Origin: an uncultured Candidatus Saccharibacteria bacterium | GTDB lineage: Bacteria > Patescibacteriota > Saccharimonadia > Saccharimonadales > UBA7683 | Assembly: GCA_964397855.1 (NCBI GenBank) | Contig: CAYNKQ010000001.1 | Location: 38,046 to 102,045 of the forward strand | Length of the DNA stretch: 64,000 nt | Direction: 5' to 3' | In this document: in pieces, positions 9,106 to 35,965 of the stretch | Position numbering within the stretch: position 1 is the first letter of the stretch | How the letters are laid out: the number at the start of each line of letters is the position of its first letter | Position numbers and translations under genes: made by a program | The notes under the pieces: generated by a model | Told to the model about the DNA's origin: nothing | The model's database searches: none | The model's input: only the letters and a program-made list of their open reading frames with translations

Positions 9106-9310
9106 CACCCATTCAACCAAACCCGAACACCGGAAGGTTCTTTTTGTTGAATCAAGAAAAGACTTGCCCGAATCGGTAACTAAGAAATCATGAGGGATGC
9201 TTGTCATCGTCTTTTCGCATCAAAAAGAACTAGGAGGTGTGTCGAGGCTTGGGTGTCATGGGTGGGAGTTTTGTTACTTTTGCTGCAAAAGTAGAAAGAA
9301 CAGAAGGAAA
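9106..9310. repeat. Copy A of a ~205-bp structured repeat family (candidate ncRNA or mobile repeat)
   Basis: About 75% identical to 13850-14060. Conserved blocks gatgcttgtcatcgtc, tcgaggcttgggtgtyatgggtg and cttttg-N3/4-caaaag. Stem ATTCAAC/GTTGAAT is replaced in copy B by ACTCAAG/CTTGAGT, a compensatory change. ORF-track ORF 9197..9583 overlaps it and is probably spurious. Confidence 0.5.
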
Positions 9311-13849: not shown

Positions 13850-14060
13850 CTCAAGACCCGAACCCCGGAAGCTGCTTTTTCTTGAGTCAAGGAGTGACTT
13901 GCCTGAGTACACAAAAGAGACAAGCGAAGGATGCTTGTCATCGTCACGACGCAAGAAAAAGGAGCTGGAGGGGTATCGAGGCTTGGGTGTTATGGGTGTG
14001 CTTTTATCTTACTTTTGGCAGCAAAAGTGAGAGGAGAAAGATGCAAGAAGAAGCTGGTTG
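13850..14060. repeat. Copy B of the ~205-bp structured repeat family
   Basis: Aligns end to end with 9106-9310. Lies between convergent genes, so it is not a 5-prime UTR. ORF 13882..14088 overlaps it and is probably spurious. Confidence 0.5.
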
Positions 14061-19782: not shown

Positions 19783-20262
19783 ATGGCACAAAAAAAGCGA
19801 ATAAAAAAACTCAGAAACAAACAAAAAACCATATTTCAACAGATTGCTGAATACATGGTTGCGGGTGGCGCATTCTTCTGGAGTGGCTACCTGGCATTTG
19901 CACTATTCGACGCAGTCTTTGGTTGGCCGTTATTTGTTGCAAAGCAACTCGCCAACATTATTGGCCTTACCATTAACTATATCCTAGAAGACAGATGGGT
20001 GTTTAAACACAAAAAGGCACGAATTTCGTACGATAAACGCCGGACTCACCGTTATATAATCATCACCATTGTTAACTTTGGAATAGATTACGTGATCGTT
20101 TCGCAATTGAAGCAACACGGTATTACACCGTATCTCGGCCAGTTTGCGAGCGCGGGATTCTTCACTGTCTGGAACTTCATGTGGTACAAGTACTGGGTAT
20201 TTGCGCACCATCCTTCACGCAAAAAAGGTAAACGTCGTCCAGTTAAGAAGAAGAGGAAGTAA
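19783..20262 (+). CDS. GtrA family membrane protein (polysaccharide biosynthesis)
   Basis: 159 aa with four TM segments and the GtrA-like pattern (N.I....NY.L...WVF). Has a Lys/Arg-rich C-terminal tail. Confidence 0.7.
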   Translation: MAQKKRIKKLRNKQKTIFQQIAEYMVAGGAFFWSGYLAFALFDAVFGWPLFVAKQLANIIGLTINYILEDRWVFKHKKARISYDKRRTHRYIIITIVNFGIDYVIVSQLKQHGITPYLGQFASAGFFTVWNFMWYKYWVFAHHPSRKKGKRRPVKKKRK

Positions 20263-20702
20263 TGGCTGTTGTTCGCCCAACCAAAAAACAGCGCGAACTC
20301 CTGGTGTTTATTGAGCAGTTTGTGCAACAGCATGGCTACGGACCGAGTTATCGTGAAATTATGCGGGGTTGCAACTATAGCTCCGTAGCAACTGTTGCGG
20401 CACATGTAAATAATCTGATCTCTCGCGGTCACCTGAAAAAACGCGACAAGAGTGCTCGTTCACTTGAAGTCGTGAAACAAGATGGCGAAGTCTCTACGGC
20501 ACCGCAGCTCAAAATCACCGCAGCTAACGAAAAGTGGCTCATAGACATAATCGAAGCCAAGTTTAAAGAAGTCGAAACTGCCCCAAAGCTTGAACAGAGA
20601 AACATAGATCAACTTTACGTTGTAACAGGGGCGCTTGCTGTACTTGGCTTCGACGGCGCGGCGGTAGCGTTTAAAAGCCGCCTCAAAGAACTAGAAAAAT
20701 AG
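20262..20702 (+). CDS. LexA-type DNA-binding domain protein lacking the S24 peptidase domain
   Basis: 146 aa. The N-terminus LTKKQRELLVFIEQFVQQHGYGPSYREIMRGCNYSSVATVAAHVNNLISRGHL matches the LexA winged-HTH. The C-terminal 70 aa have no Ser-Lys dyad motifs. Confidence 0.6.
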   Translation: MAVVRPTKKQRELLVFIEQFVQQHGYGPSYREIMRGCNYSSVATVAAHVNNLISRGHLKKRDKSARSLEVVKQDGEVSTAPQLKITAANEKWLIDIIEAKFKEVETAPKLEQRNIDQLYVVTGALAVLGFDGAAVAFKSRLKELEK

Positions 20703-20760
20703 CAACTTATGTTTGACTACTGTTGATCAAACCAATATAATCTATTCACGTTCACTATAA

Positions 20761-20801
20761 ATATTCCGACGTAGTCCGCCAGCTGGCGGACGGGACGCTG
20801 T
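20761..20801 (+). other. Duplicated 5-prime fragment of tRNA-Asn (acceptor 5-prime strand and anticodon-stem start), with the D-arm replaced by a perfect palindrome
   Basis: ATATTCCGACGTAG (20761-20774) is identical to 21048-21061. GGGACGCTGT (20792-20801) is identical to tRNA positions 21076-21085. Between them lies TCCGCCAGCTGGCGGAC instead of the D-arm. Confidence 0.5.
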
Positions 20802-20815
20802 ATAATATATTTACC

Positions 20816-21061
20816 ATGTACGTGTATGCACTTTACAATCGGATAAATAAGAAAATCTATATTGGTCAGACGGCTAATCTAGAAAAACGACTTACTGAAC
20901 ATAATGAGAAATATGGTAATCATTTTACTGCAAAAGTTCAGGGCGAATGGGAGTTGATTTATAATGAGTCAGTTGCCACTCGCTCTGAGGCCATTAAGCG
21001 CGAAAAGCAATTAGAAAGCTTCAGGGGCAGAGAGTTTATCAAAATACATATTCCGACGTAG
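20816..21061 (+). CDS. GIY-YIG nuclease family protein
   Basis: 81 aa. MYVYALYNRINKKIYIGQTANLEKRLTEHN is a typical GIY-YIG core (Y..Y.....IYIG.T.NL.RR...H). The stop overlaps the first 10 nt of tRNA-Asn. Confidence 0.75.
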   Translation: MYVYALYNRINKKIYIGQTANLEKRLTEHNEKYGNHFTAKVQGEWELIYNESVATRSEAIKREKQLESFRGREFIKIHIPT

Positions 21062-21126
21062 CTCAGTGGTAGAGCGGGACGCTGTTAACGTTTAGGTCGC
21101 TGGTTCGAATCCAGCCGTCGGAGCCA
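21052..21126 (+). tRNA. tRNA-Asn (anticodon GUU)
   Basis: Manual fold. Acceptor TCCGACG/CGTCGGA, D-arm GCTC-AGTGGTA-GAGC, anticodon arm GGACG-CTGTTAA-CGTTT (two G-U pairs), variable loop AGGTC, T-arm GCTGG-TTCGAAT-CCAGC, discriminator G and encoded CCA. Confidence 0.85.
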
Positions 21127-22707
21127 GAATCTCTGAAACTCATTATTAGAACCGTCTTCCATCTGTTGGGGGGCGGTTCTAACCATTTCAGATACTGATA
21201 CCTTGTGATCATTCATCTTTTCGATGGGAACAAAGAGATTATTAGGGGTAAATGTGATGGTTCTATCCATCAATGAAAGTCTTTCACCAAGCTTGAATAT
21301 CACAGATCGTTTCTTTTCATGATCATCAGAGTCGAAGTCTTCCTTGGCGTATCTTGCAAAAGTAAAAACTTCATCTGCAGTTTCGCGCCAGTTTCTAGCT
21401 TCGTATTCTGACTTGCTCCGCTGATCTTGTAGTTTTTTAAGTGTCGATTCAAGTTGGGCAAGCTCTGCGAAATACCATGCGTCGTCATCAGCCTCGCCAC
21501 TGTACCTCATGCGTCTAAGGCTGGATATCGAAAGTGTTTTTTTATGAATAGCACGCTCCACTTCAAGCAACTTAGATTTTTCTTTAGCTACTATAAAATC
21601 TTCCTCCTCTGCTAGGGCCTCGATAGCTAACCTATAGAAATCCGGATCTATAGTAAACTTTTCTAGCTTTAACTTGATTTGATTAACTAACTCCTGCTCC
21701 GTCACGCAATAACTTCTTTGGGCACACTTTTGCCTGGTACTCTTACCGGTGCAATGATAATAGATATACTCACGAAGCTCGCCATTTGATTTAAGTTTCT
21801 TAGTCTTAAGCTCGGCTGTAACTCCATACCCGCACTCACCGCATTTAAGCAGGTTCCTTAATAAGAACGTCTGACTTTTGTTCTTTGGTCTAGTTGTGTG
21901 CCCAGGATCAATAATCTCTTGCACTCTCTTAAACTCCTCCTCAGTAACCATGGGGACCTGGTTACCCTTGTAAACATTACCTAAAAAACTTAATTTTCCC
22001 GTATAGAAAATGTTTTTAAATACTGTATGAAGCGTAGAGTAGGCAAGTGCTTTTCCGCCAGTCTTCCCTCGACGCGGCGTTAAAATCAAAAGTTCTTTTT
22101 CTGCAACATCCACCAGTTGAGCCACAGAGTAAGTTCCAGTCAACATTTTATCCCAGAGCGTACGGATCTTAGGAAATAGTTCCGGATCTGGGACTATTGT
22201 TTTTGCGAGTCGATCGTTGAGATAGCCAATTGGTGGGATCCCAGGCTTGTCCCCTTTGAGGGCTTTAGACTTCATACCCCTTTTAGTGTTTGCTGCTAAT
22301 TCACGGATGTACTGGTTGGACATACCAGCTTCCACGCTCAGTAGTAACGCGTTGTCTGACGGAGTATATGCTTTATCGGATGTCTGTATCATCTGCAACT
22401 TACCATCTTGAAGTAACTGCTGAAGCCTGCCGCTATCGGTGGGGTTACGAGATAAACGATTGAATTGCCAGCAAAGTATTGCGTTTATTGAACCATTCTC
22501 GATAAGCGACATCATTCGTTCGAACTCAGGTCTATTGCCTGGTAGTTTTGCAGATTTCGATTCTACGAACTTCTCCACCATCATTAGATTCTTTTGCCTG
22601 GCTAATTCACTCATAAGTCGAGTTTGGTCTTCAAGCGATTGAACCTGTTTGTCTTCTGTGTCTGTTGACTTACGTACATACAAGCCAAATTTTAATAGTT
22701 TATCCAT
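21085..22707 (-). CDS. Large serine recombinase (resolvase N-terminal catalytic domain, recombinase domain and zinc-ribbon, with a coiled-coil C-terminus)
   Basis: N-terminal MDKLLKFGLYVRKSTDTEDKQVQSLEDQ is the resolvase catalytic-Ser region. Also has C..C..C/H zinc-ribbon motifs (CGECGYGV...YYHCTG). Start set at ATG 22707, which has a good RBS (AGGAGA). The ORF track extends to 22884. The 3-prime end overlaps tRNA-Asn positions 34-75. Confidence 0.85.
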   Translation of the reverse strand: MDKLLKFGLYVRKSTDTEDKQVQSLEDQTRLMSELARQKNLMMVEKFVESKSAKLPGNRPEFERMMSLIENGSINAILCWQFNRLSRNPTDSGRLQQLLQDGKLQMIQTSDKAYTPSDNALLLSVEAGMSNQYIRELAANTKRGMKSKALKGDKPGIPPIGYLNDRLAKTIVPDPELFPKIRTLWDKMLTGTYSVAQLVDVAEKELLILTPRRGKTGGKALAYSTLHTVFKNIFYTGKLSFLGNVYKGNQVPMVTEEEFKRVQEIIDPGHTTRPKNKSQTFLLRNLLKCGECGYGVTAELKTKKLKSNGELREYIYYHCTGKSTRQKCAQRSYCVTEQELVNQIKLKLEKFTIDPDFYRLAIEALAEEEDFIVAKEKSKLLEVERAIHKKTLSISSLRRMRYSGEADDDAWYFAELAQLESTLKKLQDQRSKSEYEARNWRETADEVFTFARYAKEDFDSDDHEKKRSVIFKLGERLSLMDRTITFTPNNLFVPIEKMNDHKVSVSEMVRTAPQQMEDGSNNEFQRFWLRRLDSNQRPKR

Positions 22708-22974
22708 GAATTGTTCTCCTCTTAGAACCAAAAAGGGCGGCCTGGTTGTTGTAACATCCAGTAGCAAAAAGCCACTTTCCGTACCAAGCCGCCCGTTAGA
22801 GGACAGAAAATATAATAGCTTTTGCCAAGACCTGAATGTTACAACGTTAATATTGTATCTAAATTTATACTTACTGGCGAGCAAATCTTTATTAATAGAA
22901 ACTTGAGTGAAGATACCTTGACAGTCATGATATCTTTAATAAAGATCTAATAAATAAAGATATAATCGCGCTAA

Positions 22975-23328
22975 CTAAAATTCTAAACTTCTTAACTCTT
23001 CATTCAGTTGGTCGTGAGTTAGATCTGAAAGCTCAGCGATTGCGGGTATTTCTGTTTCGCCAGTATAGTACTTAACTGCCGCGATACAGGCGGCTTCAAT
23101 CTCTTTCCAAAGTGTTGATTGCTTAGCGAACTCCAACTGTCTGAAACTTTTTCCACTCTTTGAAGTACCTTGGGGAGTAAGAACACCCCATGATGGATGC
23201 TTACTGCCGGGCGCGAATACCATTAAGCCGTTTATATACATACCTAGACTTGGAATTGACACCTTAACCCTAAACCCACCATTTGGAATTTCCATGTGAA
23301 CCGCGGCTTCTATACCAAATTTACTCAT
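22975..23328 (-). CDS. Hypothetical protein (last gene of a three-gene minus-strand operon)
   Basis: 117-aa ORF overlapping the upstream ORF by 8 nt. No recognisable motifs. Confidence 0.4.
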   Translation of the reverse strand: MSKFGIEAAVHMEIPNGGFRVKVSIPSLGMYINGLMVFAPGSKHPSWGVLTPQGTSKSGKSFRQLEFAKQSTLWKEIEAACIAAVKYYTGETEIPAIAELSDLTHDQLNEELRSLEF

Positions 23329-23545
23329 GTTTTTTCACTTGCCGTTGCACTATTCTAATTAATTCTGCAAGCTCACGAAGTCCTTTACTGGCCGTGTCAA
23401 AGTCGATCTCTTCACCATACTTTTTTCTATATAGACGCTTAAATTCTTTAACCAAGGTAACGTTGATGTTCATTGCATCTCCTGTACATGAAAACCGCCT
23501 GACAGAATGGCTGTTCGTCAGACGGTTATCTTTGCCATTCCGCAA
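23321..23545 (-). CDS. Small hypothetical protein
   Basis: 74-aa ORF. The likely start is the internal Met (MNINVTLVKEFKRLYRKKYGEEIDF...). Basic and helical. Confidence 0.3.
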   Translation of the reverse strand: MRNGKDNRLTNSHSVRRFSCTGDAMNINVTLVKEFKRLYRKKYGEEIDFDTASKGLRELAELIRIVQRQVKKHE

Positions 23546-23617
23546 CCAATAATGGCGAAAGTAGGCGATCTATTCACTAGTTAGACTAGTAAGGTACTAG
23601 ATTTACATAAGGTGGTA

Positions 23618-24409
23618 CTAACGGGTGCTAAGTTTTTGTATTATTACGAGCTCACTTGGTGTTAATAATGCTCTACTTTTTAGCATTATGGATTTTGATC
23701 GAACCTCGGCGAACATACTAAGTGCGTTACCCTCACCAAAAACGTTTTTTCTGAAATACTGGTTTAGGTTTGCAGTATTCTTTTGTAGTTGAACATTCTT
23801 AAGACTAAACTGAAGCTCTTTCAATGAAATTTCTTGGTTAAAATTCTTGCATGCGTATGATATCACTGCCTGGGGAACACTGCCGTCAACTAGTGACTGC
23901 AGTCTATAGGTGTCATTGCCTACTCTAACAGAAGGGGTTGAGCCGCTGCTAATTTCAATTTCTGCACTAACTCCGTGAGTAGTTGGGTTAAACCCGTGCA
24001 GTTCACAAAATCTTTGAAAATTCGAATACTCGAATCCATCTAGCCATCGTTCATATTCGTACTCTCGATGGGCAGGATCAGTCTTGTACCAATCTCCATA
24101 GAGTAGCTGGTCATTTCCGTGTACTTCAAAGTAGTCTAGTTGCTGGCTTCTGTATCGATTTTCTAGACTTCGACTTTTTATGACACCTGCTTTCGTTAGT
24201 GTTTCTAGCGCGCGGTCTTCGTCCCATACATTCTGCAGGTTTACTTCAGTAGACAAGGCCTCTTCCCAATCAAAGCGCCATCTTCTGTCCTCGAAATCGT
24301 GACCTTCAAGAAATAATTCATTCAGTTTAAATAAAACTCGATTAATCCAGGTTGTATTATTTGCCATTCCGCAGACATTATACCCTGATGTAGCTAAACC
24401 TACTATCAA
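23618..24409 (-). CDS. Hypothetical protein, Trp/Tyr-rich, no recognisable domain
   Basis: 263-aa ORF. First gene of the operon adjacent to the recombinase. Confidence 0.4.
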   Translation of the reverse strand: MIVGLATSGYNVCGMANNTTWINRVLFKLNELFLEGHDFEDRRWRFDWEEALSTEVNLQNVWDEDRALETLTKAGVIKSRSLENRYRSQQLDYFEVHGNDQLLYGDWYKTDPAHREYEYERWLDGFEYSNFQRFCELHGFNPTTHGVSAEIEISSGSTPSVRVGNDTYRLQSLVDGSVPQAVISYACKNFNQEISLKELQFSLKNVQLQKNTANLNQYFRKNVFGEGNALSMFAEVRSKSIMLKSRALLTPSELVIIQKLSTR

Positions 24410-24602
24410 TCTGTGGCAATGGGTTTTATAATCAGAGAGTCTAAATCAACAAGAAGAACAAACCTTCGTGGTTCTTTGATTGCTTCCAGTAATGGGCAGC
24501 CAGTCGAAATCAGTAGGAAGCAATTCTTGTTGTTGGTTTAGACACCTTAGATTGGCTGTCCTTTTTTAGTGTCAGCATGAATAATTTACAAAAGGAGTAT
24601 TT

Positions 24603-24905
24603 ATGAAGTTCGTATATTTTGGCCTAATTCCGTTTCTTCTTACAGCCTGGTTTGTGTACAGGGAGCATTACAAGGTAGATTCAGGACCTGACCCCCTTGG
24701 TAGCAAAGACTTTAGAAACACGAACTTGGTCTTTTTGTTAATTGCTACCTGTTTCTATATGTGGCGGTTTAGTTTGGGAGCAGGTTTACTCACGGGGTTC
24801 GCGGTTTTACTTGCCAGATATTTTTGGGGTAGCGCTATTAAGACAATTAAAAGGCATGAATCTACCAACCAAGCTCCGAGAGTCAACAAGAAAGGGAATA
24901 GATGA
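24603..24905 (+). CDS. Small membrane protein
   Basis: 100 aa with three hydrophobic helices. RBS AAGGAG 8 nt upstream. Confidence 0.4.
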   Translation: MKFVYFGLIPFLLTAWFVYREHYKVDSGPDPLGSKDFRNTNLVFLLIATCFYMWRFSLGAGLLTGFAVLLARYFWGSAIKTIKRHESTNQAPRVNKKGNR

Positions 24906-25306
24906 TCTTCACTTTTTTGTTTATTTTGTTCACGCTTGTGGTTGTAAACGCCTTTCGCGATCGCAAGAAATAGCTTCCTGCTGGGGGTATCTTTTACTCT
25001 TATAAACCCCATATGGGAACCCAAAAATAAATGGGGTTGGTGCTAACGCGCGCTTTAAAGTTGCCTGCATTTTAGATTGATCTCTACTCGCTACGCTCAT
25101 TCTATGAGCTGCGAGGTGGTGTATATATAAAACCTGCCTGGGCTACTGTTAGGTGCCTGATATTTTTACGGCATAAGCATTTAAGCATCAACTGACATTT
25201 ATACAACGTTGATATACAAAGCAGGGCAGCGGAGTTATAATCAGCTAAGCAATGTAAGTACTGGCCCAGCCTTTCCACTTACAGGCTTATTAACAAGGCT
25301 GCACAC

Positions 25307-25987
25307 TCACTGGGAGTTCAAGGGTTGGATGTAGCTTGCTTCGTCAGACCGTGAACTATTCACGTCCCTGCTCACCTCAACTATGTTTAACATTCCGTCT
25401 TTGTAAGGTTTCATCAGCTGTGATATTGCATCTGGTTCATCAAGCGAAGGCTCTAGCCATAAAGACGTATCGTCCGGCTGCAAAATTACGGGCATCCTAT
25501 CATGGACTTTGCTCATTTCTTTATTTGGTTCTGTGGTGATGATTGAATAAGTACCCCAGTCATGACCTTCTGCATCTTTCCAGTGGCCGTACACGCCAGC
25601 AAATGCAAACAGTTCCTGATCCTTCGGCTGTATAAAGAATGGTTGTTTGTCACCCTTGGCACCCTTCCACTCATAGAAGCCGTTCGAGGGCACTAAGCAC
25701 CTTTGAAACTTAATAGCTTTACTCCAAGACCTTTTTTCAAACACACCCTCTGCACGAGTGTTAAACATCTTGTATTTGAACATATCTTTAGAGTCTTTCA
25801 TCCAAGGGGTCATGAAGCCCCACTTCATTTGCTCAACATGATTGCCGCCATCCTTCTGAAGGATGATAGGCACCAGTTGACTCGGTGCTATGTTGTAACG
25901 TTCTTTGAACCCAGCAACTTCTTTCTCGGGCACCTTGAACAGGTGGGGTATTTTACCTGTTTGATATAGGGTATAACGTCCGCACAT
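25307..25987 (-). CDS. SOS-response-associated peptidase (SRAP/YedK/HMCES family) abasic-site processing protein
   Basis: 226 aa starting MCGRYTLYQ (catalytic Cys2). Also has the conserved ...FNTRAE...GFYEW... SRAP motifs. Confidence 0.8.
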   Translation of the reverse strand: MCGRYTLYQTGKIPHLFKVPEKEVAGFKERYNIAPSQLVPIILQKDGGNHVEQMKWGFMTPWMKDSKDMFKYKMFNTRAEGVFEKRSWSKAIKFQRCLVPSNGFYEWKGAKGDKQPFFIQPKDQELFAFAGVYGHWKDAEGHDWGTYSIITTEPNKEMSKVHDRMPVILQPDDTSLWLEPSLDEPDAISQLMKPYKDGMLNIVEVSRDVNSSRSDEASYIQPLNSQ

Positions 25988-26037
25988 ATGACATATTGTA
26001 CTCCTATTAAATCTTTGGAACTTTCTTATCTCTCTAC

Positions 26038-26448
26038 TTAAACCACATCTTGGCGGATAGGGAATATCGGAGATGTGAACCTATCTTGGCTTACAGGGGT
26101 AGTTTCAGCCTCGGCGTCTAAAGCTTCGTTGCGTAAGCCGACGCATAAATCATCTAATGCAGTTGATCCTTTGACAACCATGGCCATTAGGCCCACGTAG
26201 GTACCTATTCTTGTGGGCTCCCTTCCTTCTAAGAGTTCGTTAGATAGTAATACTACCAGTGGTTGACAGATAATTATGCCCGTCCACATATAGAAGTTCG
26301 CTCCACCCTTAGCAAGAATCTCTGCCGCTCTACCTTCCCTCCACGACTTCTCTTGTGGAAGCGCAGGCTGATCCTGTTCAATTAACACTCCTGGGTTATA
26401 CATAACATAACTATAGCATAAATATAATAATAAAGCAAGGACAATCAT
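26038..26448 (-). CDS. Hypothetical membrane protein
   Basis: 136-aa ORF upstream of and co-oriented with the SRAP gene. Two hydrophobic segments. Confidence 0.35.
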   Translation of the reverse strand: MIVLALLLYLCYSYVMYNPGVLIEQDQPALPQEKSWREGRAAEILAKGGANFYMWTGIIICQPLVVLLSNELLEGREPTRIGTYVGLMAMVVKGSTALDDLCVGLRNEALDAEAETTPVSQDRFTSPIFPIRQDVV

Positions 26449-26707
26449 GTACGAACTTATAAATGAACCAGTAGATATGATCGCTATTTTTGGTAAATCA
26501 TTCCACGACCTTAAGCCTTATCGTTTTCGTTGGGCCGACAAAGAGTACCTGATTACTAAAATTGGATATAAGCACAAAACTAAAGAAGGAAAGAAGGTAA
26601 TCCATGTTTTCTCGGTAACCGACGGAGTTAACTTCTTCGAGCTCCGTTTCGATGCAGACGACATAGGCTGGGTACTTGGGAGGACCTGGGATGGCGAAGC
26701 CAATTAA
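26447..26707 (+). CDS. Small protein translationally coupled to the Y-family polymerase (YolD/UmuD-surrogate-like accessory factor?)
   Basis: 86-aa ORF overlapping the downstream polymerase ORF. The arrangement mirrors small-partner/UmuC-like pairs on mobile elements. No motif-level support. Confidence 0.3.
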   Translation: MYELINEPVDMIAIFGKSFHDLKPYRFRWADKEYLITKIGYKHKTKEGKKVIHVFSVTDGVNFFELRFDADDIGWVLGRTWDGEAN

Positions 26708-27971
26708 TCCCTACGGCTTAGGCTTAAACACTGAAGATCCTCGCATGATGCACATAGATATGAATAGCTGTTTCGCAAGTGTGGAGCAGCAAGCTAATCC
26801 GCTCCTGCGCGGTCGTCCGGTCGCGGTTTCGGCGTACGATTCACCTGGAGCAATAATCATCGCACCATCAATAGAGGCAAAGGCTATGGGTATTAAGCTT
26901 GGAATGACAAACGCAGAAGGCAAAGGTATATGTCCTGATCTGGTGGTCCTCACGCCCGATCCTATGAAGTATCGTGACGCAAATATTCGCTTCAGAAACA
27001 TATTTCAAAGTTATACCGATAAAGTAGCCCCAAAGTCGATTGACGAGGCTGTGATGGACTTCAGGGGGTCTCTGGCGATAAAAAATAAGACCATGATCGA
27101 TATAGGGAGGGAGATCAAACAGAGAGTGAAGGTGGAGATTGGAGAGTGGATACAGGTCAACGTAGGAATTGGCACAAGTCGTTGGACTGCAAAGATGGCG
27201 GCGGGCTTGCATAAACCCAATGGCTTGGACGTGCTTACGCACAAAAACCTACTTGATGTATACGGGCATCTACAACTGACTGACCTTACAGGAATTAGTA
27301 GACGAAACGAAGCTCGCTTAAACTCATACGGGATCTATACACCCTTAGACTTTTATAATGCGCCCGTCGACCTACTGAAAAAACAAGTGTTTCAGTCAAT
27401 CGTTGGCTACTATTGGTATGTTGAGCTTCGCGGTTGGGAAATGCATGATATCGATACGAGTCGCAGGTCCTTTGGCCACACCTATGCGCTAGGGAAGAAA
27501 ACGGTCGACAAGGCAAAGCTAGCACCTATGCTCATGAAGCTCTGCGAGAAGACCGGCAGACGGCTTCGTAGGCATGGGTATTATGCTCAGGGTATTCACG
27601 TGTCATTCGTCTACTACGACCATACATACTGGGGTAAAGGTAGGCGGGTAAGGGCGCCGCTATATACAACACAAGATATTTTTAAACACGCAATGCTGAT
27701 ATTCAACATGCAGCCACATCGCAAGATCGTAACCAATTTGTTTGTGACAGTGTACGATCTCGCCAGCAATGAATACCTCCCCAAAAGTCTGTTTGATGTT
27801 GGCAAGATGGACGTGGTTGCTCGTTCAAGGGCATTTGACGATATCAATGATCGCTATGGCGAGTTCACGGTAATACCTGCTGCGATGTTGGATGCAAAAG
27901 ACATCATTTTAGATCGCGTAGCGTTCGGTGGCGTTAAAGAACTGGAAGATCTTTATAACAACACCTTATAG
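26676..27971 (+). CDS. Y-family translesion DNA polymerase (UmuC/UvrX-like)
   Basis: HIDMNSCFASVEQQANPLLRGRPVAVS...IIAPSIEAKAMGIKLGM matches the UmuC/DinB N-terminal palm. The probable true start is the MM at 26748. Confidence 0.8.
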   Translation: MGGPGMAKPINPYGLGLNTEDPRMMHIDMNSCFASVEQQANPLLRGRPVAVSAYDSPGAIIIAPSIEAKAMGIKLGMTNAEGKGICPDLVVLTPDPMKYRDANIRFRNIFQSYTDKVAPKSIDEAVMDFRGSLAIKNKTMIDIGREIKQRVKVEIGEWIQVNVGIGTSRWTAKMAAGLHKPNGLDVLTHKNLLDVYGHLQLTDLTGISRRNEARLNSYGIYTPLDFYNAPVDLLKKQVFQSIVGYYWYVELRGWEMHDIDTSRRSFGHTYALGKKTVDKAKLAPMLMKLCEKTGRRLRRHGYYAQGIHVSFVYYDHTYWGKGRRVRAPLYTTQDIFKHAMLIFNMQPHRKIVTNLFVTVYDLASNEYLPKSLFDVGKMDVVARSRAFDDINDRYGEFTVIPAAMLDAKDIILDRVAFGGVKELEDLYNNTL

Positions 27972-28004
27972 TTGCCTTCAGAAATTCAGTATATGAAGTC
28001 AGGG

Positions 28005-28748
28005 CTATTTACCAAATAACTGGTCCAACTTTCCAAGTTCCCGCTGCTGTGTGTCAGCGTCAGAGTACATCTCCGTGATCTCGGATCTCTTAACCGCGTA
28101 AATATTTTCACTTTTAGACCACTTAACCATTTGTTCTCTGCGACGCCGTGTAAACTCTGGCTGTATTTTTGATGAGATTATTTCTATCGGAGCCCCGGTT
28201 TGTGTCGCCAAGCTTCTTGAGGTTTGAGCGTAGTTCTGAGATATCTCTTCCAGAATCTGACGATGAGTAGACTCGTAGACAATCACATCCATATCGATAT
28301 TATCAAGGGGATTGCTGGACTTTAGCTTACGCTTTAGGTCTTCAAGATCCGCCTGAATACTAGGCAGAAACTCGTGAAGAGGTTTACTCGGTTGGCCGTG
28401 GTGAGTTTGTTTGTATTCAGGAAAAGCGTCTTCTTGAGCTCCTCGGTAATATGCAGTGAGATTTCTATTTTTCTCGAAAAGGAAAAAATCCTCTGCATGT
28501 GTTTGGTCTGGTTTCATGTAGCGTATGCCAACGCCTATGGATTCGTTCTCAGTAGAGGTTGGGTAGGAAATGGTAATCTCGACCTTTATACCAGTTTTGC
28601 GATCAATTACTATGCCGTAGCTGTTTAAAAGTTCACCGATTTTGTAGCCCCAAGGATTCAGGAGCCCGCCTTGAGCCGCATCTACAATTACTTTAACTTC
28701 ATCGTAAGCCTTTGAAGAGTCCTTAATAACTTTGCCAGGTTTACTCAT
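28005..28748 (-). CDS. Hypothetical protein, downstream partner of the TIR-like gene (candidate effector/sensor)
   Basis: 247 aa, soluble, no TM and no recognisable catalytic motif. Its start overlaps the stop of the upstream gene by 8 nt. Confidence 0.45.
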   Translation of the reverse strand: MSKPGKVIKDSSKAYDEVKVIVDAAQGGLLNPWGYKIGELLNSYGIVIDRKTGIKVEITISYPTSTENESIGVGIRYMKPDQTHAEDFFLFEKNRNLTAYYRGAQEDAFPEYKQTHHGQPSKPLHEFLPSIQADLEDLKRKLKSSNPLDNIDMDVIVYESTHRQILEEISQNYAQTSRSLATQTGAPIEIISSKIQPEFTRRRREQMVKWSKSENIYAVKRSEITEMYSDADTQQRELGKLDQLFGK

Positions 28749-29550
28749 CGTTAGTTTTAAGCATTTTGATTATGTCAAAGCCCTTTTTTGCTAAAGTATA
28801 GTTCGGAGTACCTCTGCTACTAACTGCCAGCTTTAAGATGTTCTGCTGCACAAGATCATCCATATTGGCCACAACTTCTTGGGTACTGTATCGCTTAATT
28901 TGGTTGTGAATTTCTTCTTTAACTTGACCAGCCATCATTAGGTCGGAGCCACCCATGTGAACAGACACCATTATTCTTTTTTCATCTTCCATAGCCGCGA
29001 ACGCTCGCATGATCACAAGCTGTATATCATCTAAAGACTTCTCAACTTTATCAATATCTTGTTCGTCTAAGCTGTTTAGGTGGGCAGTTAGGGCGCCGAC
29101 AAGCTTCTCTTTTAACTTAGATCCATTCTTGTCATCTTTTTCAATTGAAAACTGAAGTACTCTATGGTGGGAGATATCAAAGGGTAAGTCCTTCGGATCG
29201 CCAAGATCAGCGTTAAAGAGCATCACGACATTATGTTCTGAGTGCTTTGCAATAGCATACCCAAGTTCGAACATCACATTTTGGTTAACTAGCTTAGCTC
29301 CAGAAGTTGATAAATCAACCATAGAAACGTCGGCTACGAATATTCCACAGTTATCAATTTTATCCTTGATCGTGGTCGCAATATTGGGAGAGCCGACTGA
29401 TCCTTGTGTGTCTCTATCAAGTCTTGGGGACTTTTCTAAAATATTTTTTCCCGCGAGCTCAGTAATAGAATTACTCAATGCTTTGCTTATAAAGCCCTTG
29501 GTTTTTTGATTGTTGCTTTGCCATGAGTAAAATATAGAGACACTTTCCAT
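28741..29550 (-). CDS. TIR-like domain protein (ThsB/DUF1863-like N-terminal domain plus ~120-aa helical C-terminal domain)
   Basis: 269 aa. N-terminus VSIFYSWQSNNQ matches the betaA signature of bacterial TIR/TIR-like domains (VFISYSW[DE]...). A conserved Glu sits in NVMFELGYAI about 95 aa in. Confidence 0.5.
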   Translation of the reverse strand: MESVSIFYSWQSNNQKTKGFISKALSNSITELAGKNILEKSPRLDRDTQGSVGSPNIATTIKDKIDNCGIFVADVSMVDLSTSGAKLVNQNVMFELGYAIAKHSEHNVVMLFNADLGDPKDLPFDISHHRVLQFSIEKDDKNGSKLKEKLVGALTAHLNSLDEQDIDKVEKSLDDIQLVIMRAFAAMEDEKRIMVSVHMGGSDLMMAGQVKEEIHNQIKRYSTQEVVANMDDLVQQNILKLAVSSRGTPNYTLAKKGFDIIKMLKTNDE

Positions 29551-29645
29551 AATTTAAGTATATCTCATTGAGAACGCGAACAGACAACCCCTGGGTTTAA
29601 GTCGATTATGTAAACCGAAGGTAAAACCCCGCGATCTCTATAGGG

Positions 29646-29915
29646 ATGAGTGTTAATAATAAAACCAAGGGTGGTAAGATGTTAGAAATTAGTAAAGTGC
29701 GAAGCCTCTTGACCAACGAAACAAATGGAATGTCCAATAAGCAGATTGGCGCGGTCTTAAACAGATTGGGTGATCTGCCTGAAGATGAGCTTTCGGCTGC
29801 TTGGAAGAGAGAGGTAGACCGTCATTATATAGAGTTGGCTTCCTTTCTGTATGATCGTTTCAAAAGTGCTTCTAAAGTTAACAGTTGTAAAACTGACGTC
29901 AAGATTCTTGAATAG
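29646..29915 (+). CDS. Small hypothetical protein
   Basis: 89-aa ORF with RBS-like GGGTGG upstream. Followed by the hairpin AACCGC-N7-GCGGTT at 29993-30011. Confidence 0.3.
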   Translation: MSVNNKTKGGKMLEISKVRSLLTNETNGMSNKQIGAVLNRLGDLPEDELSAAWKREVDRHYIELASFLYDRFKSASKVNSCKTDVKILE

Positions 29916-30113
29916 AATCGAAAATTAACCTATAGTGGTATGTAGACATCATGCATGAAAGGCGAATATGCGTGACAGAGCGGGTACATTTATAAAATAC
30001 TAAACCGCCTAGTATGCGGTTACTTTTAGTCTCTATAACTTATGAATCGAGATTTTGAGTAGTTGCATATGCACTACATTTCAAACGCAAGTTTGATCGC
30101 GTAAACAACAAAG

Positions 30114-30149
30114 GAACCCTGATCATTTTGACCAGGGTTCGTTTGTTTC
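30114..30149. terminator. Hairpin terminator, possibly bidirectional (GAACCCTG-N11-CAGGGTTC followed by GTTTGTTTC)
   Basis: Perfect 8-bp stem, T-rich on the plus side and CTTTGTTGTTT on the minus side. Lies ~35 nt downstream of the minus-strand gene 30180..30506. Confidence 0.4.
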
Positions 30150-30179
30150 AAGGCGCTCACGATCGCCTTTGCTTTTATG

Positions 30180-30506
30180 CTACCAAGTTCGTGTTGGTGA
30201 ATTCAACCAAGTTGCTGAGTCACTATCAATGTTCCAAGAAGACCATGTCCGTGGATAAATCCGAGTGACTAAGTACTCATCGTTCGGGTCACCTGCGCTC
30301 GAGAGCTTGTCCCGCCAATAACCTGCCGAGCTGGCAGAGTCGATAAGCCAAACTGAGCCTTGAGGGTGCGTGTACTTACCAATTCCAACGCTTTTAATCG
30401 CAGCGATAACGTCGTCGTAATCTCTGCCGGGGTTGTGTAAATCGTAACTAACTGTGTAAACCATAATGGATAGTTCCTTTATATTGTTAATGTTCTTTGC
30501 CAACAC
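30180..30506 (-). CDS. Hypothetical small protein
   Basis: 108-aa ORF. The probable start is the internal MVYTVSYDL... RBS present. Confidence 0.35.
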   Translation of the reverse strand: MLAKNINNIKELSIMVYTVSYDLHNPGRDYDDVIAAIKSVGIGKYTHPQGSVWLIDSASSAGYWRDKLSSAGDPNDEYLVTRIYPRTWSSWNIDSDSATWLNSPTRTW

Positions 30507-30992
30507 AAACAGAACTGTCGTGAGTCAGTTGATGAACTAGAGGCCAAGCGGTGGTCGGTGATTTTATGTTCGCGTAAACATGTTATGAGCCGAAAACCGC
30601 AAAGCTTTTCTAGGTGTTGGTTGGGCAGCTCCTTCTATACCCCAGAGTACCCTCTGTTAATAAAAGAAGTCTACACCACTCGAGGGACGTAGGTGCCCCC
30701 TTGCGTGGGCTACTACTCCGTGGGAGTTGTTGGTACTTCTACCTACTGCTCCCCCGAGTGCTATAGACTTAATGTCTGCAAGGATGACGGTGTACCAATA
30801 CCGTATTTTTACACAGCCTCTCTCAAGGCTGATACATTTATTATACCAGAATCCGCTTACGGCTGGAAGCTTTTAGGCCAGTTTATTGTGAAAAATACTA
30901 AGAAACGTGCTGCCTGCGAGATGCTAACAGATTAAGCGTGAATGCTGTTCAATTTCACGACCAGTCTTAAGCCACTAACCGTTTCGAACTAA

Positions 30993-31095
30993 GGTTATAA
31001 CTTCCTCTATCGTGGGGAGCCAAGCCATGTTAGATGAAGTCAGAACTGTGAAAATGGTTCTGACTTTTTGTATACCCAAAATAGAACTGAAACCG
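30993..31095 (+). repeat. Cassette-boundary repeat copy 1 (attC-like: L arm, perfect central hairpin plus T-run, R arm)
   Basis: GGTTATAACTTCCTCTATCGTGGGGAGCC ... AAGTCAGAAC-N10-GTTCTGACTTTTTG ... TATACCCAAAATAGAACTGAAACCG. The L and R arms are imperfect inverted repeats (TCTATYGT / ACAATAGA). Confidence 0.6.
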
Positions 31096-32043: not shown

Positions 32044-32163
32044 TAATTACAGTTATAACTTCCTCTATTGTTGTGAGCCAAGCTGGAATAGACGAAGTCA
32101 GAACTGGTAATTCGGTTCTGACTTTTTGTATACCCACAATAGAATTGAAACCGTTTAGAGCGT
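32044..32163 (+). repeat. Cassette-boundary repeat copy 2
   Basis: AGATCCTGCTTAATTACAGTTATAACTTCCTCTATTGTTGTGAGCCAAGC...AAGTCAGAAC-N10-GTTCTGACTTTTTGTATACCCACAATAGAATTGAAACCG. About 85% identical to copy 1. Confidence 0.65.
32105..32138 (+). terminator. Intrinsic-terminator-like hairpin within repeat copy 2 (10-bp perfect stem plus TTTTT)
   Basis: AAGTCAGAAC TGGTAATTCG GTTCTGACTT TTTG, ~95 nt downstream of the 31760..32011 stop. An identical stem is at 31037-31070. Confidence 0.5.
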
Positions 32164-33461: not shown

Positions 33462-33540
33462 AGTCTGCCTTGATTACGGTTATAACTTGCTCTATCGTTG
33501 TGAGCCAAACAAATGCAACTCACATCTGTGGGTTGTTTTC
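33462..33540 (+). repeat. Cassette-boundary repeat copy 4 (left arm intact, centre replaced)
   Basis: AGTCTGCCTTGATTACGGTTATAACTTGCTCTATCGTTGTGAGCCAAAC then AAATGCAACTCACA. This forms a TGTGAG/CTCACA hairpin instead of the AAGTCAGAAC stem. Confidence 0.5.
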
Positions 33541-33829
33541 GTTTCTCTGGTGTTTGGTTCGGTTCGGTGACCTGAGATTGCGAAGGAATCTCGCAAGGTT
33601 ACGATTCGATAGTCAAGTGCTCTCGCAGAAGCTCGCTTCGAGAAAGTACGCAGAGTATACTCGGGTAATCCAGTCGCCGGAGCCACGAAGATTACATCTG
33701 TTAATTTTCATACCCCAAACTTGACTTCCGAACTAATACCTCTGATGAGGTATTTTTTGTTATACTAACAACATGATAAGCAAGTAATTCATCCCAGATA
33801 AATAACAATTAACAAAGGAATGAATTATT

Positions 33830-34609
33830 ATGCGTGTAAAAACTAAATACGATGACGTTAATAAAGTACTAGATCTTCTCACGGAGGGCTTAGTAGAGCT
33901 ACTCGGAGATCAACTAGTCGGCTTATATTTAACAGGATCACTGACCTACAGTGACTTCAATCGTGATAGCAGTGACATAGATTTTCTTGCAGTGCTTGAA
34001 ACCGGACTTGCTGATAGCCAGTTTGAGAAAGTGAAAAAACTTCACGAAGCGATTGCCAATGAAGTACCTCATTGGTCTAAGAATCTTGAAGGCTCTTATA
34101 TAACTCGAGGTATGTTAGGAAATATAGAGGTACCAGAGGAAAAACGTCCTTATGTAAACGGTGGCAAGGTTTCTTACTGTACCTATGGAAATGAATGGAC
34201 TATCAATTTGTACGCCCTTCAAGAATGCGGACAGGTTATCTACGGGGCGGGGGTGCAGCCGTTATTGCCAATAGTAACAATTGAGCAAGTAAGAGAATCA
34301 TCCAGGCAAGATTTACTAAAAGACTGGGCTCCTAAAGTAAATGATCCGAATGCTTTCACTCATTCAATGTATGACAGTGAACACTTAAAGAACTATGCAA
34401 CGCTAACTATGTGCAGAATACTTTACAGAGCAAAGAATGATAACATCGCCTCAAAGAAAGTTGCTTCTAAATGGGTTAAAGAGACCTACCCTGAGTGGAA
34501 AGATCTGGTTGAACGGGCAGAAGATTGGATTCACGGCAAAGAGATGGGCAGTGATACCAAAGTGAGGAAGTTTATCGAGTTTACTCTAGAACAAGTTCAG
34601 AAAGATTAA
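33830..34609 (+). CDS. Nucleotidyltransferase-domain protein resembling aminoglycoside adenylyltransferases (AadA/ANT(3'')(9)-like)
   Basis: 259 aa. LVGLYLTGSLTYSDFNRDSSDIDFLAVLE is the pol-beta-type NTase motif G[SG]-x9-13-D-x-D. Length and the C-terminal helical domain resemble ~260-aa AadA-family enzymes. RBS AAAGGA upstream. Confidence 0.6.
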   Translation: MRVKTKYDDVNKVLDLLTEGLVELLGDQLVGLYLTGSLTYSDFNRDSSDIDFLAVLETGLADSQFEKVKKLHEAIANEVPHWSKNLEGSYITRGMLGNIEVPEEKRPYVNGGKVSYCTYGNEWTINLYALQECGQVIYGAGVQPLLPIVTIEQVRESSRQDLLKDWAPKVNDPNAFTHSMYDSEHLKNYATLTMCRILYRAKNDNIASKKVASKWVKETYPEWKDLVERAEDWIHGKEMGSDTKVRKFIEFTLEQVQKD

Positions 34610-34789
34610 AGCTATTTGACGTCACGTGGCGGGATAGTTGGACTATCTCGTCATAGTACTTAGTTCGTAATATGCTTGGCAGAGGGAGCCAGAGCCAGCA
34701 GTGAAATACAGTGATCGGTTCCCGTGACCTGTTCCTGATTCACTCCTGACTCAAGTCAAGAAGAGTGACTTTAATAAAATTGCTCAAAA

Positions 34790-35284
34790 ATGCTGGAACC
34801 ATCTGAAAGGGTGGTTTTTGCATATTCACCCCTGGAAATAAGTTCTAGAGCCGAGCCGTTTCCTATTACAATGTTGCTGCCAGGCCAGGCCCCGCCATCG
34901 ATATGCAGGGCAAAAAAGGCCGTAATTATCGATGATCCACATCGGATGCCGCCTACCTTGAACACTGCAATAGGATTGGTCGAACAGTCGGAAGACGAGT
35001 TTAATGACCTTGGTGAAAGCATATTAGATCCGGTGCTTAAACAGCCGCAGCGACAACATCATCTTAAAGTTCATTATCGATCAAAATACAACAAACTTTT
35101 TGAGCGATCGCGTGAGGCGATTTATAGCAACGATGGGATTGAACCGATCTTTGAAGCAAAGCTAGCTGATGGAGCGCCTATTGATATTCTCGATGGTTTG
35201 GGTGGAGAGCTAGACGATAATGGCTACGATAAGAACTTTTACAAAATTTGCGAATCACCGAAGATTACTTGGCAAAAAAGATAG
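34790..35284 (+). CDS. Hypothetical protein (weak call; the opposite-strand ORF 34771..35022 competes)
   Basis: 164-aa ORF with no motifs. This region between the cassette-like array and the BGC is ambiguous. Confidence 0.2.
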   Translation: MLEPSERVVFAYSPLEISSRAEPFPITMLLPGQAPPSICRAKKAVIIDDPHRMPPTLNTAIGLVEQSEDEFNDLGESILDPVLKQPQRQHHLKVHYRSKYNKLFERSREAIYSNDGIEPIFEAKLADGAPIDILDGLGGELDDNGYDKNFYKICESPKITWQKR

Positions 35285-35407
35285 TAAAGCTGAATTCCGC
35301 ATACTCTTTACAAGAGGTGATGATGAACGAATCCCAAAAGTACAGAAGGATAGTCAAGGAAGGCTAATTCACCGAATTTGAATGTTTCAGGTTGCTACGT
35401 ATATCCT

Positions 35408-35965
35408 CTATACAGCCAATACGATGTTTTGCCATGCGAGCCCGTCACTATCCTTATAGGCAGCTCCGTCTTTCTTAAATCCGAGAGACTCATTTAATTT
35501 TGTTACAGCAATGTTGTCTGCGAGATGTCGAGAGTATACTGTTTTGAGTTTTAGCACATCTCGAATATAGTTTATCGCTGATTGCATTGCCGATCTACCG
35601 ATGCCTTTACCACGATAGTCGGGATTGCCTATCATGATGTGGATACTTGGGGATTTAACACCGTGATTTTCAAATAGCTCTATCCAGACGACGCCAATAG
35701 TTTTGCCGTCGGCCACGATAACACGAGTTATTTGCTTGCCGGAGTCCTCGAGATCGATAAATTCCTGCATAATGGCACGTTCACCTTCTAGGGTGGACGG
35801 TTCTATTTCGTTTTCTGAGTTGCCCATACTTAAGAGAGTGGCATGCCCTTCTGGGCGCGTAAACCAACTGTGTGCAAATGGGGTATCACGATCAACCTCC
35901 GGTTTTAGAAGTTGTATGTCGGTGTGCAGTGATTTCATGATTCTCCTATAGGCCTCGCTCGGCAT
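35408..35965 (-). CDS. GNAT family N-acetyltransferase (paralog of 32910..33455), co-operonic with the aminotransferase
   Basis: 185 aa. SIHIMIGNPDYRGKGIGRSAMQSAINYI GNAT motif A. Overlaps the upstream aminotransferase gene by 20 nt. Confidence 0.7.
   Translation of the reverse strand: MPSEAYRRIMKSLHTDIQLLKPEVDRDTPFAHSWFTRPEGHATLLSMGNSENEIEPSTLEGERAIMQEFIDLEDSGKQITRVIVADGKTIGVVWIELFENHGVKSPSIHIMIGNPDYRGKGIGRSAMQSAINYIRDVLKLKTVYSRHLADNIAVTKLNESLGFKKDGAAYKDSDGLAWQNIVLAV

Follow-up and report, generated by a model that had tools for sequence, protein, structure and literature searches.

A putative self-restoring GIY-YIG gene cassette in the tRNA-Asn gene of Candidatus Saccharibacteria

The tRNA-Asn gene in a 64-kb stretch of DNA from an uncultured Candidatus Saccharibacteria bacterium (contig CAYNKQ010000001.1; hereafter the window, whose positions serve as coordinates) is preceded by a gene for an 81-amino-acid (aa) GIY-YIG protein, and upstream of that gene lies a second, incomplete copy of the tRNA's 5′ end, split by a palindrome. 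This arrangement is probably a small mobile, self-restoring cassette held by the tRNA gene, one that would spread by homing-like or Campbell-like break-induced recombination. Rather than a one-off scar, the locus belongs to a conserved family of cassettes with the palindrome as a constant element, and cassettes of this family, nesting in tRNA genes, are widespread and apparently undescribed. The argument is carried by the anatomy of the locus, by the presence of the cassette in some related lineages and its absence from others (L-numbers below denote such lineages or contigs), by conservation under purifying selection, by co-variation of the copied arms with the host's tRNA, and by palindromes specific to each clade. 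Beyond this, we infer that the protein is an active nuclease, what it acts upon and the route by which recombination proceeds.

Two blocks of the tRNA's 5′ half occur twice, as the original prediction had it. The sequence ATATTCCGACGTAG is present in exactly two copies, at 20761 and 21048 (with up to two mismatches allowed, 3 of 100 shuffled sequences give at least two matches), and GGGACGCTGT in two, at 20792 and 21076 (1 of 100 shuffles does equally well); by BLAST the second repeat grows to the 11 nucleotides (nt) CGGGACGCTGT, its copies starting at 20791 and 21075. The blocks are collinear, and in the upstream copy TCCGCCAGCTGGCGGA stands between them, forming with its flanking G20774 and C20791 an 18-nt perfect palindrome. 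A 17-nt perfect palindrome had been quoted earlier; the palindrome is there, but it is perfect only with the preceding G added. The cloverleaf of the tRNA-Asn(GTT) at 21052–21126, with its GUU anticodon, was found by two methods (Table 1), and the tRNA is all that Rfam found at the locus at permissive thresholds. The GIY-YIG open reading frame (ORF) lies between the two copies, but it does not fill the interval exactly as first claimed, since a 14-nt spacer (20802–20815) precedes its ATG. Its stop codon does overlap tRNA positions 1–10 as proposed, the TAG at 21059–21061 being U8-A9-G10 of the tRNA. CTGT/ATAAT-type junctions between copy and spacer are also seen in other short-form lineages (defined below). 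An internal promoter formed by such a junction seems unlikely: it has no acceptable −35 element, and in some lineages the ATG abuts the copy.

Related lineages with empty sites give the comparison that the original prediction called for. In L173, L174–177 and L180/181 the order of the GalU, GtrA and LexA-like genes is kept and only promoter, leader and tRNA-Asn follow, with neither GIY-YIG gene, pseudo-fragment nor palindrome at tRNA-Asn. Their promoter and leader (TTGACTACTGTT...TATAATCTA..CACGTTC..ATAT/TCC) align with 20713–20764 in the window, directly 5′ of the pseudo-fragment, and the promoter at 20713–20741 is homologous to the one directly 5′ of tRNA-Asn in L173, L174 and L180. The pseudo-fragment thus occupies the native tRNA start, and the cassette is an insertion relative to the empty alleles. 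The same relatives, which share the synteny and lack both gene and pseudo-fragment, bear out the earlier claim that insertion of the GIY-YIG gene duplicated the 5′ flank, and a pseudo-fragment without the gene was not found among the related tRNA-Asn loci compared. Besides the window, L083, L089, L094 and L095 are occupied, and they have the flanking genes of the empty lineages and a promoter homologous to theirs. Occupancy is patchy: in the LexA-like protein, a widespread core protein in which the empty lineages are 75%–85% identical, the window is 84%–85% identical to empty lineages versus 79% to the occupied L083. A scan seeded with the neighboring GalU returned 80 loci at no more than 61% identity, without conserved synteny, tRNA-Asn or GIY-YIG; its best matches were to Saccharimonadales metagenome-assembled genomes, which places the window in the Saccharibacteria. 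The LexA-like protein itself (20262–20702, 146 aa) has an N-terminal LexA DNA-binding domain only, without a peptidase domain; it is highly conserved, with more than 7,000 homologues, and its gene usually lies just 5′ of tRNA-Asn in this clade. Three independent assemblies of one empty-site lineage (L175, L176, L177) all break inside tRNA-Asn, at about the end of position 29, as expected if the population is polymorphic downstream, for instance in the presence or absence of an intron.

Homologues of the 81-aa protein range from 38% to 100% identity, and the sources label the GIY-YIG homologues Candidatus Saccharibacteria. Where they are close (77%–100%), the gene lies between the LexA-like gene and tRNA-Asn, with a pseudo-fragment upstream. 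A metagenome scan added 80 loci at 52%–77% identity; a tRNA-Asn(GTT) follows the ORF immediately in about 68 of these 80, and the stop codon is tRNA U8-A9-G10 in most of them and T20-A21-G22, in another frame, in some. At nearly every locus the leader and 5′ end of the lineage's own tRNA are copied 46–90 nt 5′ of the ATG and are split by TCCGCC-N4-GGCGGA. All 51 non-redundant GIY-YIG ORFs are intact.

The copied arms follow the tRNA of their host. The acceptor strand of the copy is that of the lineage's own tRNA in 41 of 49 non-redundant lineages, with 19 acceptor variants among them; exact matches across lineages amount to 6.5%, and none of 10,000 permutations reaches 41 of 49. Two forms of pseudo-half exist, and which of them is present goes with the clade of the ORF. 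In the long form only nucleotides 14–17 of the D-loop give way to the palindrome, and the D-stem and the 3′ nucleotides of the D-loop match the lineage's own tRNA, neutral variants included. In the short form, to which the window belongs, the palindrome replaces positions 11–24. Short-form copies match their own tRNA up to T35; in long-form copies the match sinks to background level by about position 30. Along the short-form right arm, identity to the lineage's own tRNA is 88%–100% at positions 26–31 versus 23%–60% across lineages, and it falls at position 36. No conserved 3′-half partner for the pseudo-half is hidden within the ORF, and arm mismatches are uncorrelated with ORF decay (Spearman 0.11, p 0.46).

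That the repeats are coincidental, or that the structure is an assembly artefact at the tRNA gene, has a negligible probability in our estimation. The repeats are short (14 and 11 nt) and metagenome assemblies do break at tRNA genes, as in L175–177; against this, dozens of samples and lineages independently assemble the same architecture, identical copies come from two further runs, and the shuffle and permutation controls on the repeats given above speak the same way.

The palindrome, with consensus TCCGCC-N4-GGCGGA, is in nearly all cassette loci and always in the displaced, non-functional piece of tRNA. Its outer TCCG/CGGA is invariant across lineages and its central four bases are variable; the inner two pairs vary symmetrically only (9 cells changed on both sides, 0 on one side; 0 of 500 shuffles reach this). 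As DNA its hairpin is predicted at −8.3 kcal/mol, and the symmetric changes are compatible with either a hairpin or a two-fold symmetric protein site. Palindrome type, like pseudo-half form, goes with ORF clade (TCCGCCAGCTGGCGGA, TCCGTTAGCTAACGGA and TTCGCCGCGGCGAA). A genome-wide repeat was ruled out as an explanation for it by the single match to CCGCCNNNNGGCGG (at most one mismatch) in the 64 kb, the window palindrome itself. Viral contigs scanned for the palindrome gave 55 exact matches, none beside tRNA fragments or GIY-YIG genes; there is thus no sign of a phage reservoir. In the tRNA-Lys(CTT) of L186/L187 the anticodon stem TCCGC/GCGGA is that of the palindrome, which may have originated from the tRNA-Lys anticodon arm.

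Cassettes of the family are found on other tRNAs and in the opposite orientation. In L186/187 a homologue of 49% identity occupies tRNA-Lys(CTT) by the same logic and with the same palindrome, which here lies at the anticodon stem of the copy upstream. Mirrored forms consist of an intact tRNA-Asn, the ORF and then a pseudo-3′ part whose T-loop holds TCCGTTAGCTAACGGA (L182 and L243, 53%–54% homologues), or of tRNA-Val(GAC), the ORF and a pseudo-3′ part with TTCGCCGCGGCGAA in the T-loop (L245, a 45% homologue). L113 is a tandem array with three consecutive pseudo-halves, an ORF whose end lies in a pseudo-half, and a pseudo-tRNA bearing palindromes in all three loops; in L163 tandem ORFs have been homogenised over their last 75 nt. 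These two arrays show ongoing recombination at cassette loci. The L113 pseudo-tRNA (1080–1210 of that contig) lies 3′ of the real tRNA, with TCCGCC-N4-GGCGGA-type palindromes in its D, anticodon and T loops; another, in L186 (about 1860–1950), likewise lies 3′ of the real tRNA and has, in place of the anticodon stem, a palindrome that is missing from the otherwise identical L187. The palindromes in these pseudo-tRNAs suggest that the palindrome spreads among tRNA-like copies.

The 81-aa protein matches Pfam PF01541 at 59.8 bits (cut-off 22.6; E 3.2e-16), and besides GIY-YIG it matches only the overlapping T5orf172 in Pfam, both over residues 1–66. The catalytic-motif columns Y15, G17, R25, H29, N30 and E63 show no variation, and Y4 almost none (alignment A2, 28 homologues); because of this invariance we predict that it is an active nuclease. 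The closest solved structures in a profile search are 1YWL (2.2e-9) and 1ZG2 (4.7e-8), ahead of SLX1 and I-TevI, which by sequence assigns the protein to the minimal Slx1/UPF0213 type, a single domain with no accessory domain. The two structures are of bacterial Slx1-like/UPF0213 proteins and share with the window protein its single-domain size. To our knowledge, proteins of the 1YWL/1ZG2 type have no assigned function and no reported tie to tRNA genes or cognate palindromes, and we know of no role for the small stand-alone GIY-YIG (UPF0213/Slx1-like) proteins that are very common in bacteria. Members of the Slx1 lineage are structure-specific nucleases, of which UPF0213-like proteins are the minimal domain form (Dunin-Horkawicz et al. 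2006, PMC1564403). The match to the NCBIfam group I intron endonuclease family TIGR01453 reaches 31.9 bits, below the cut-off of 56, and covers only residues 3–33 of the protein in a 215-position model. A C-terminal sequence-specific DNA-binding domain with linker, of the I-TevI/Seg type, was not found; the protein stops at residue 81.

In the reading we prefer, the cassette would be about 290 bp long and made up of the 16-bp palindrome, the copy of tRNA positions 25–35, the spacer and the GIY-YIG gene. It would have entered within the 5′ half of the tRNA gene, leaving the native promoter, leader and first 10 nt stranded upstream as a dead pseudo-half; the ORF's final codons and stop would double as replacement leader and tRNA positions 1–10, so that an intact tRNA is rebuilt downstream and ORF and tRNA would both be read from the native tRNA promoter. 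Spread would most likely be by break-induced homologous recombination through the tRNA-identical arms beside the palindrome, the break probably being made by the mini-nuclease acting on the palindrome, its hairpin or the tRNA gene; the insertion would in that sense be nuclease-driven and of the "homing type" that had been proposed. Recombination between the 14-nt direct repeats would remove the cassette and restore an empty tRNA gene. On this reading the family, which occupies Asn, Lys and Val tRNA genes at the 5′ half or, as a mirror image, at the 3′ half, is gained and lost among related bacteria.

Sequence divergence bears on this mobility. The dN/dS ratio (nonsynonymous to synonymous rate) of the GIY-YIG gene is 0.09–0.24, that is, purifying selection. 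Synonymous divergence between the window and L083 (pS, the proportion of synonymous differences) is 0.47 for GIY-YIG, well below the saturated 0.76 of the adjacent LexA-like gene. Between L089 and the window the GIY-YIG proteins are 77% identical, the LexA-like proteins 45% and the GtrA proteins 33%, and in L089 both the pseudo-half and the tRNA have that lineage's own tRNA sequence. Such values suit a cassette moving between lineages, or one under strong constraint; as far as sequences of so short a gene can tell, horizontal spread is likely.

Several observations weigh against a mobile cassette of this kind. Polymorphism between occupied and empty sites within one species was not seen. To the comparison of synonymous divergence GIY-YIG contributes only 81 codons. 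The occupied allele keeps an unaltered tRNA and, should the tRNA gene be the target, nothing obvious would protect that allele; the missing DNA-binding domain makes site-specific homing by the 81-aa protein alone doubtful. The zero count of pseudogenised ORFs in 51 lineages fits a host-useful gene equally well, and the search favored intact copies. Finally, the right arm matches each host's tRNA, whereas simple homing or Campbell models predict that it travels with the cassette. Worked by hand, simple homing, Campbell and target-site-duplication models were each rejected as sole explanations of a host-matched right arm. An extra step is needed, for which heteroduplex correction at each insertion, short-tract conversion stimulated by the nuclease or palindrome, and selection are candidates.

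One further proposal speaks to that arm. The palindrome-bearing pseudo-half could be a programmable targeting module, homology- or RNA-guided, for homing with the 81-aa nuclease; the nuclease would bind the clade-specific palindrome, folded in DNA into a hairpin or cruciform or folded in the leader RNA into a hairpin, and the host-identical arms would steer both cleavage and recombination towards the intact tRNA gene. If true, this would account for arms that track the host at unpaired positions, for the match of palindrome to clade, and for retargeting to Lys, Val and 3′ halves. We give it a low probability.

A different account makes the gene a domesticated one of the host, co-transcribed with tRNA-Asn, and the pseudo-5′ half a cis-acting RNA leader that switches the transcript between mRNA and tRNA fates. 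The leader would pair with the tRNA's 3′ half into a giant tRNA-like fold, leaving the real 5′ half single-stranded, and the ORF would then be translatable rather than severed by RNase P. Much of the locus can be read this way. The promoter lies 5′ of the pseudo-half, which would then be transcribed as an mRNA leader; minimum-free-energy and centroid folds of 20753–21126 pair the upstream acceptor strand with the tRNA's 3′ end and form the palindrome hairpin, with no other complementary partner in the ORF; the arms are complementary to their own 3′ half in most lineages; the ORF is always intact and under purifying selection; and its stop codon, given the overlap, would be lost on RNase P cleavage. 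The details of the arms fit poorly, however. Where a left arm differs from its own tRNA the change breaks the pairing in about 8 of 9 cases, rather than leaving a G-U pair; the anticodon-stem arm of the long form is at background by position 30, so that the helix is not general; and unpaired D-loop nucleotides (U20/C20) and D-stem variants track the own tRNA when pairing needs neither. Close relatives do without the whole module, mirrored forms carry the pseudo-half 3′ of both tRNA and ORF, and the true tRNA, folding locally, should have the kinetic advantage. We consider this account unlikely, if slightly less so than the targeting module.

The boundary of the short-form copies at T35 recalls another class of element, since group I introns are inserted exactly after T35 of tRNA-Asn(GUU) in L118, L121, L144 and L178/L179 (Rfam RF00028, 64–93 bits in L144, L118 and L121). 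In L141 and L157 a similar insertion was recognized by eye at the same point without an Rfam match. An HNH-like ORF lies inside the tRNA-Asn insertion of L141 and a free-standing HNH gene 5′ of the tRNA in L178. In a review of bacterial group I introns from 2014 (PMC3984707) we found none reported in tRNA-Asn. The shared T35 boundary hints at a historical link between pseudo-halves and introns. The locus might accordingly be read as a decayed group I intron with a GIY-YIG gene, once at tRNA-Asn 35/36 and now immobile, in which the pseudo-half is the old 5′ exon, a fresh 5′-exon copy has replaced the ribozyme core, and the whole is only inherited or lost. Genuine introns at this site in relatives, pseudo-halves of the window type that stop there, HNH genes in or near the same tRNA, and the weak match of the protein's N-terminus to the intron endonuclease family are all in keeping with such an origin. 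Against it, the RF00028 ribozyme core gave no match in the window at the gathering threshold or at E ≤ 10, and no ribozyme remnant was detected there; in some lineages the cassette coexists with an ORF-less intron in the downstream tRNA; the long-form, tRNA-Lys and mirrored cassettes are bounded elsewhere; and the protein is of Slx1/UPF0213 rather than I-TevI type. Nor would an immobile remnant hold its arms host-identical over 19 acceptor variants or keep all ORFs intact. An intron relic therefore seems to us improbable, and the mobile cassette is the reading we retain.

The other end of the same tRNA is occupied by an element of its own. As had been proposed, a serine recombinase gene ends inside the tRNA, overlapping it from index 34 to index 75, and its last 13 residues and stop codon are antisense to tRNA-Asn. 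The protein has the domains Resolvase (PF00239, 1.2e-20), Recombinase (PF07508, 1.9e-4) and Zn_ribbon_recom (PF13408, 6.9e-7), with weak NCBIfam matches to XisF and Ccr recombinases; recombinase genes end in tRNA-Asn in like manner in L085, L106 and L168 (L106 55% and L085 24% identical). The recombinase-borne island postulated at the tRNA's 3′ end is 9.9 kb long. Its far end is set by a second GGAGCCA core at 31016–31022: the sequence that directly follows tRNA-Asn in L180 (GAGCCA, then AGCCAAGTTAG...AAGTCAGAAC...GTTCTGACTTTTTGTATAC) is found at 31016–31095, and because the native downstream flank resumes at 31023, after that core, the island is 21127–31015. L083 had been considered for the role of the island's empty site; the genes that follow there are missing from the window, and the L180 flank defined the end instead. 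The island was integrated, independently of the cassette, by the large serine recombinase at the tRNA's 3′-terminal GGAGCCA. The integration core lies within the 3′ end of the recombinase gene, so that integration swaps the enzyme's last 13–15 residues; in the predicted circular form the tail would read ...FWLPTIEEVITLVRNG instead of ...FWLRRLDSNQRPKR. Its cargo (25307–29550) contains a set of DNA-damage-tolerance genes, with SRAP (SOS-response-associated peptidase) and a Y-family polymerase (ImpB/MucB), and a gene for a TIR-domain-like protein, possibly one of defence. Features of both elements, with predicted junctions, are collected in Table 1.

Table 1. Positions of the tRNA-Asn cassette, the adjoining island and related features, with predicted junction sequences
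Feature	Position	Strand	Remarks
Sigma-70-type promoter TTGACT-17-TATAAT	20713..20741	+	11/12 consensus positions; native tRNA-Asn promoter, now upstream of pseudo-fragment
Pseudo-5′ fragment, left arm	20761..20774	+	Leader −4..−1 (ATAT) and tRNA positions 1–10; exact 14-nt repeat of 21048–21061
Cassette palindrome TCCGCCAGCTGGCGGA	20775..20790		Stands in place of tRNA positions 11–24 (D-arm)
Pseudo-5′ fragment, right arm	20791..20801	+	tRNA positions 25–35; exact 11-nt repeat of 21075–21085; homology stops at T35
AT-rich spacer ATAATATATTTACC	20802..20815	+	Without Shine-Dalgarno sequence; T20801 with ATAAT gives TATAAT
81-aa minimal GIY-YIG (Slx1/UPF0213-like) gene, predicted nuclease	20816..21061	+	Pfam PF01541; final 10 nt are tRNA positions 1–10
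Intact tRNA-Asn(GTT)	21052..21126	+	CCA encoded; intron-free; ARAGORN and Rfam RF00005, 71.3 bits
Large serine recombinase gene, 540 aa	21085..22707	-	ATG at 22707, stop at 21085–21087, i.e., 42 nt into the tRNA
attL, GGAGCCA core	21120..21126		Homology to empty/related loci stops at 21126–21128
Island body, 9889 bp	21127..31015		Between identical 7-nt GGAGCCA cores
attR, GGAGCCA core (31016–31022) and native tRNA-Asn 3′ flank with terminator hairpin	31016..31095	+	Aligns with L180 flank (alignment A4)
tRNA-Asn 3′-end remnant AATCCAGTCGCCGGAGCCA	33667..33685	+	17/19 versus window tRNA; 0/100 shuffles give a second match
Predicted empty-site junction			TTCACTATAAATATTCCGACGTAGCTCAGTGGTAGAGC
Predicted cassette circle/tandem junction			AAAATACATATTCCGACGTAGTCCGCCAGCTGGCGGAC
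Predicted island attB			CCGTCGGAGCCAAGCCATGTTAGATG
Predicted island attP			CTCTATCGTGGGGAGCCAGAATCTCTGAAAC

Further traces of integration lie beyond the island. A unit made of the element end GTTATAACTTCCTCTATCGTGGG, the GAGCCA core and the native flank is present at 30987–31095 and again, attR-like, at 32045–32153 and 33469–33508; these two to three diverged copies (83% over 109 nt) look like a stack of scars from successive integrations at tRNA-Asn. The remnant of a tRNA-Asn 3′ end at 33667–33685 is 19/19 identical to that of L173 and L174, the closest empty-site relatives of the window, and is probably the relic of another integration; the present tRNA-Asn allele of the window, which is L083-like, may itself have been imported. 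Repeats and remnant together point to repeated integrations at the tRNA-Asn site. Right after the remnant (33830–35965) are genes for an AadA-like nucleotidyltransferase and several GNAT acetyltransferases, which may be resistance-type cargo of another inserted segment. Just past the island region, at 39454–48967, is a non-ribosomal peptide synthetase cluster, with proteins of 1988 and 952 aa carrying Condensation, AMP-binding and PP-binding domains together with a 4′-phosphopantetheinyl transferase, unusual for a reduced Saccharibacteria genome. The window also contains a 300-nt direct repeat (511–810 and 955–1254, 79% identity) within a 686-aa minus-strand ORF (51–2111), and an 80-nt repeat shared by two separate regions (9192–9271 and 13926–14005, 79% identity).

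Several known systems resemble the cassette in part. Islands and prophages that target tRNA genes insert in the gene, supply a replacement for the part they displace and leave a partial copy as a direct repeat. The cassette likewise restores its target, and the recombinase island of the window itself uses the tRNA's 3′ end; unlike such islands, the cassette lacks a recombinase, measures only about 290 bp and bears a palindrome in the displaced copy. Because it restores the 5′ part of the gene, which those islands do not, it must sit between promoter and tRNA. Group I introns in tRNA anticodon loops share with it the gene, the T35 site and an intact tRNA function; here, however, the window has no ribozyme, and function is kept by duplication of DNA rather than by splicing. 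In fungal mitochondria, too, mobile homing endonuclease genes bring with them a duplicate of part of the host gene, but there the context is a protein-coding gene or an intron and the enzymes are of LAGLIDADG or full-length GIY-YIG type; a palindrome is lacking, and no co-variation of the copy with the host gene is reported.

Free-standing homing endonucleases offer a parallel in behavior. In phages, the GIY-YIG endonuclease SegB makes its cuts inside tRNA genes, and these drive a segmental duplication and amplification of the tRNA and the nuclease gene that depends on recombination (PMC13096335); free-standing endonuclease genes are polymorphic in presence and absence between related genomes (PMC3984707). 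Like SegB of the T-even phages ("intronless homing"), the cassette has a GIY-YIG gene embedded at a tRNA gene, and like free-standing homing endonuclease genes it is present or absent at one fixed site in related genomes. It differs from SegB in that its protein has 81 aa, no DNA-binding domain and an Slx1/UPF0213 type, in residing on a bacterial chromosome, in having an ORF that ends inside the tRNA, and in that a palindrome-bearing partial tRNA copy is a fixed part of it, the tRNA being rebuilt and not merely flanked. By analogy, the cassette would work like a free-standing homing endonuclease gene and a target-restoring tRNA island at once, without recombinase, ribozyme or DNA-binding domain. 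We found no description of this architecture in the literature on GIY-YIG proteins with tRNA-Asn, Saccharibacteria or UPF0213, or on homing endonucleases with partial tRNA duplication.

The locus gives one clade of UPF0213/Slx1-like proteins a concrete genetic context, a putative self-restoring cassette in essential tRNA genes together with a cognate palindrome, and its pseudo-halves and overlaps of ORF and tRNA are of a kind that can mislead annotation. If the cassette reading is true, at least four kinds of mobile DNA compete for tRNA-Asn in Saccharibacteria: the cassette, group I introns, HNH endonuclease genes and serine-recombinase islands. If confirmed, the cassette would be a minimal mobile element that is harmless to its target gene without using a ribozyme or a recombinase, and it would pose the question of how a non-functional copy of 30 nt stays identical to the host's tRNA over many lineages.

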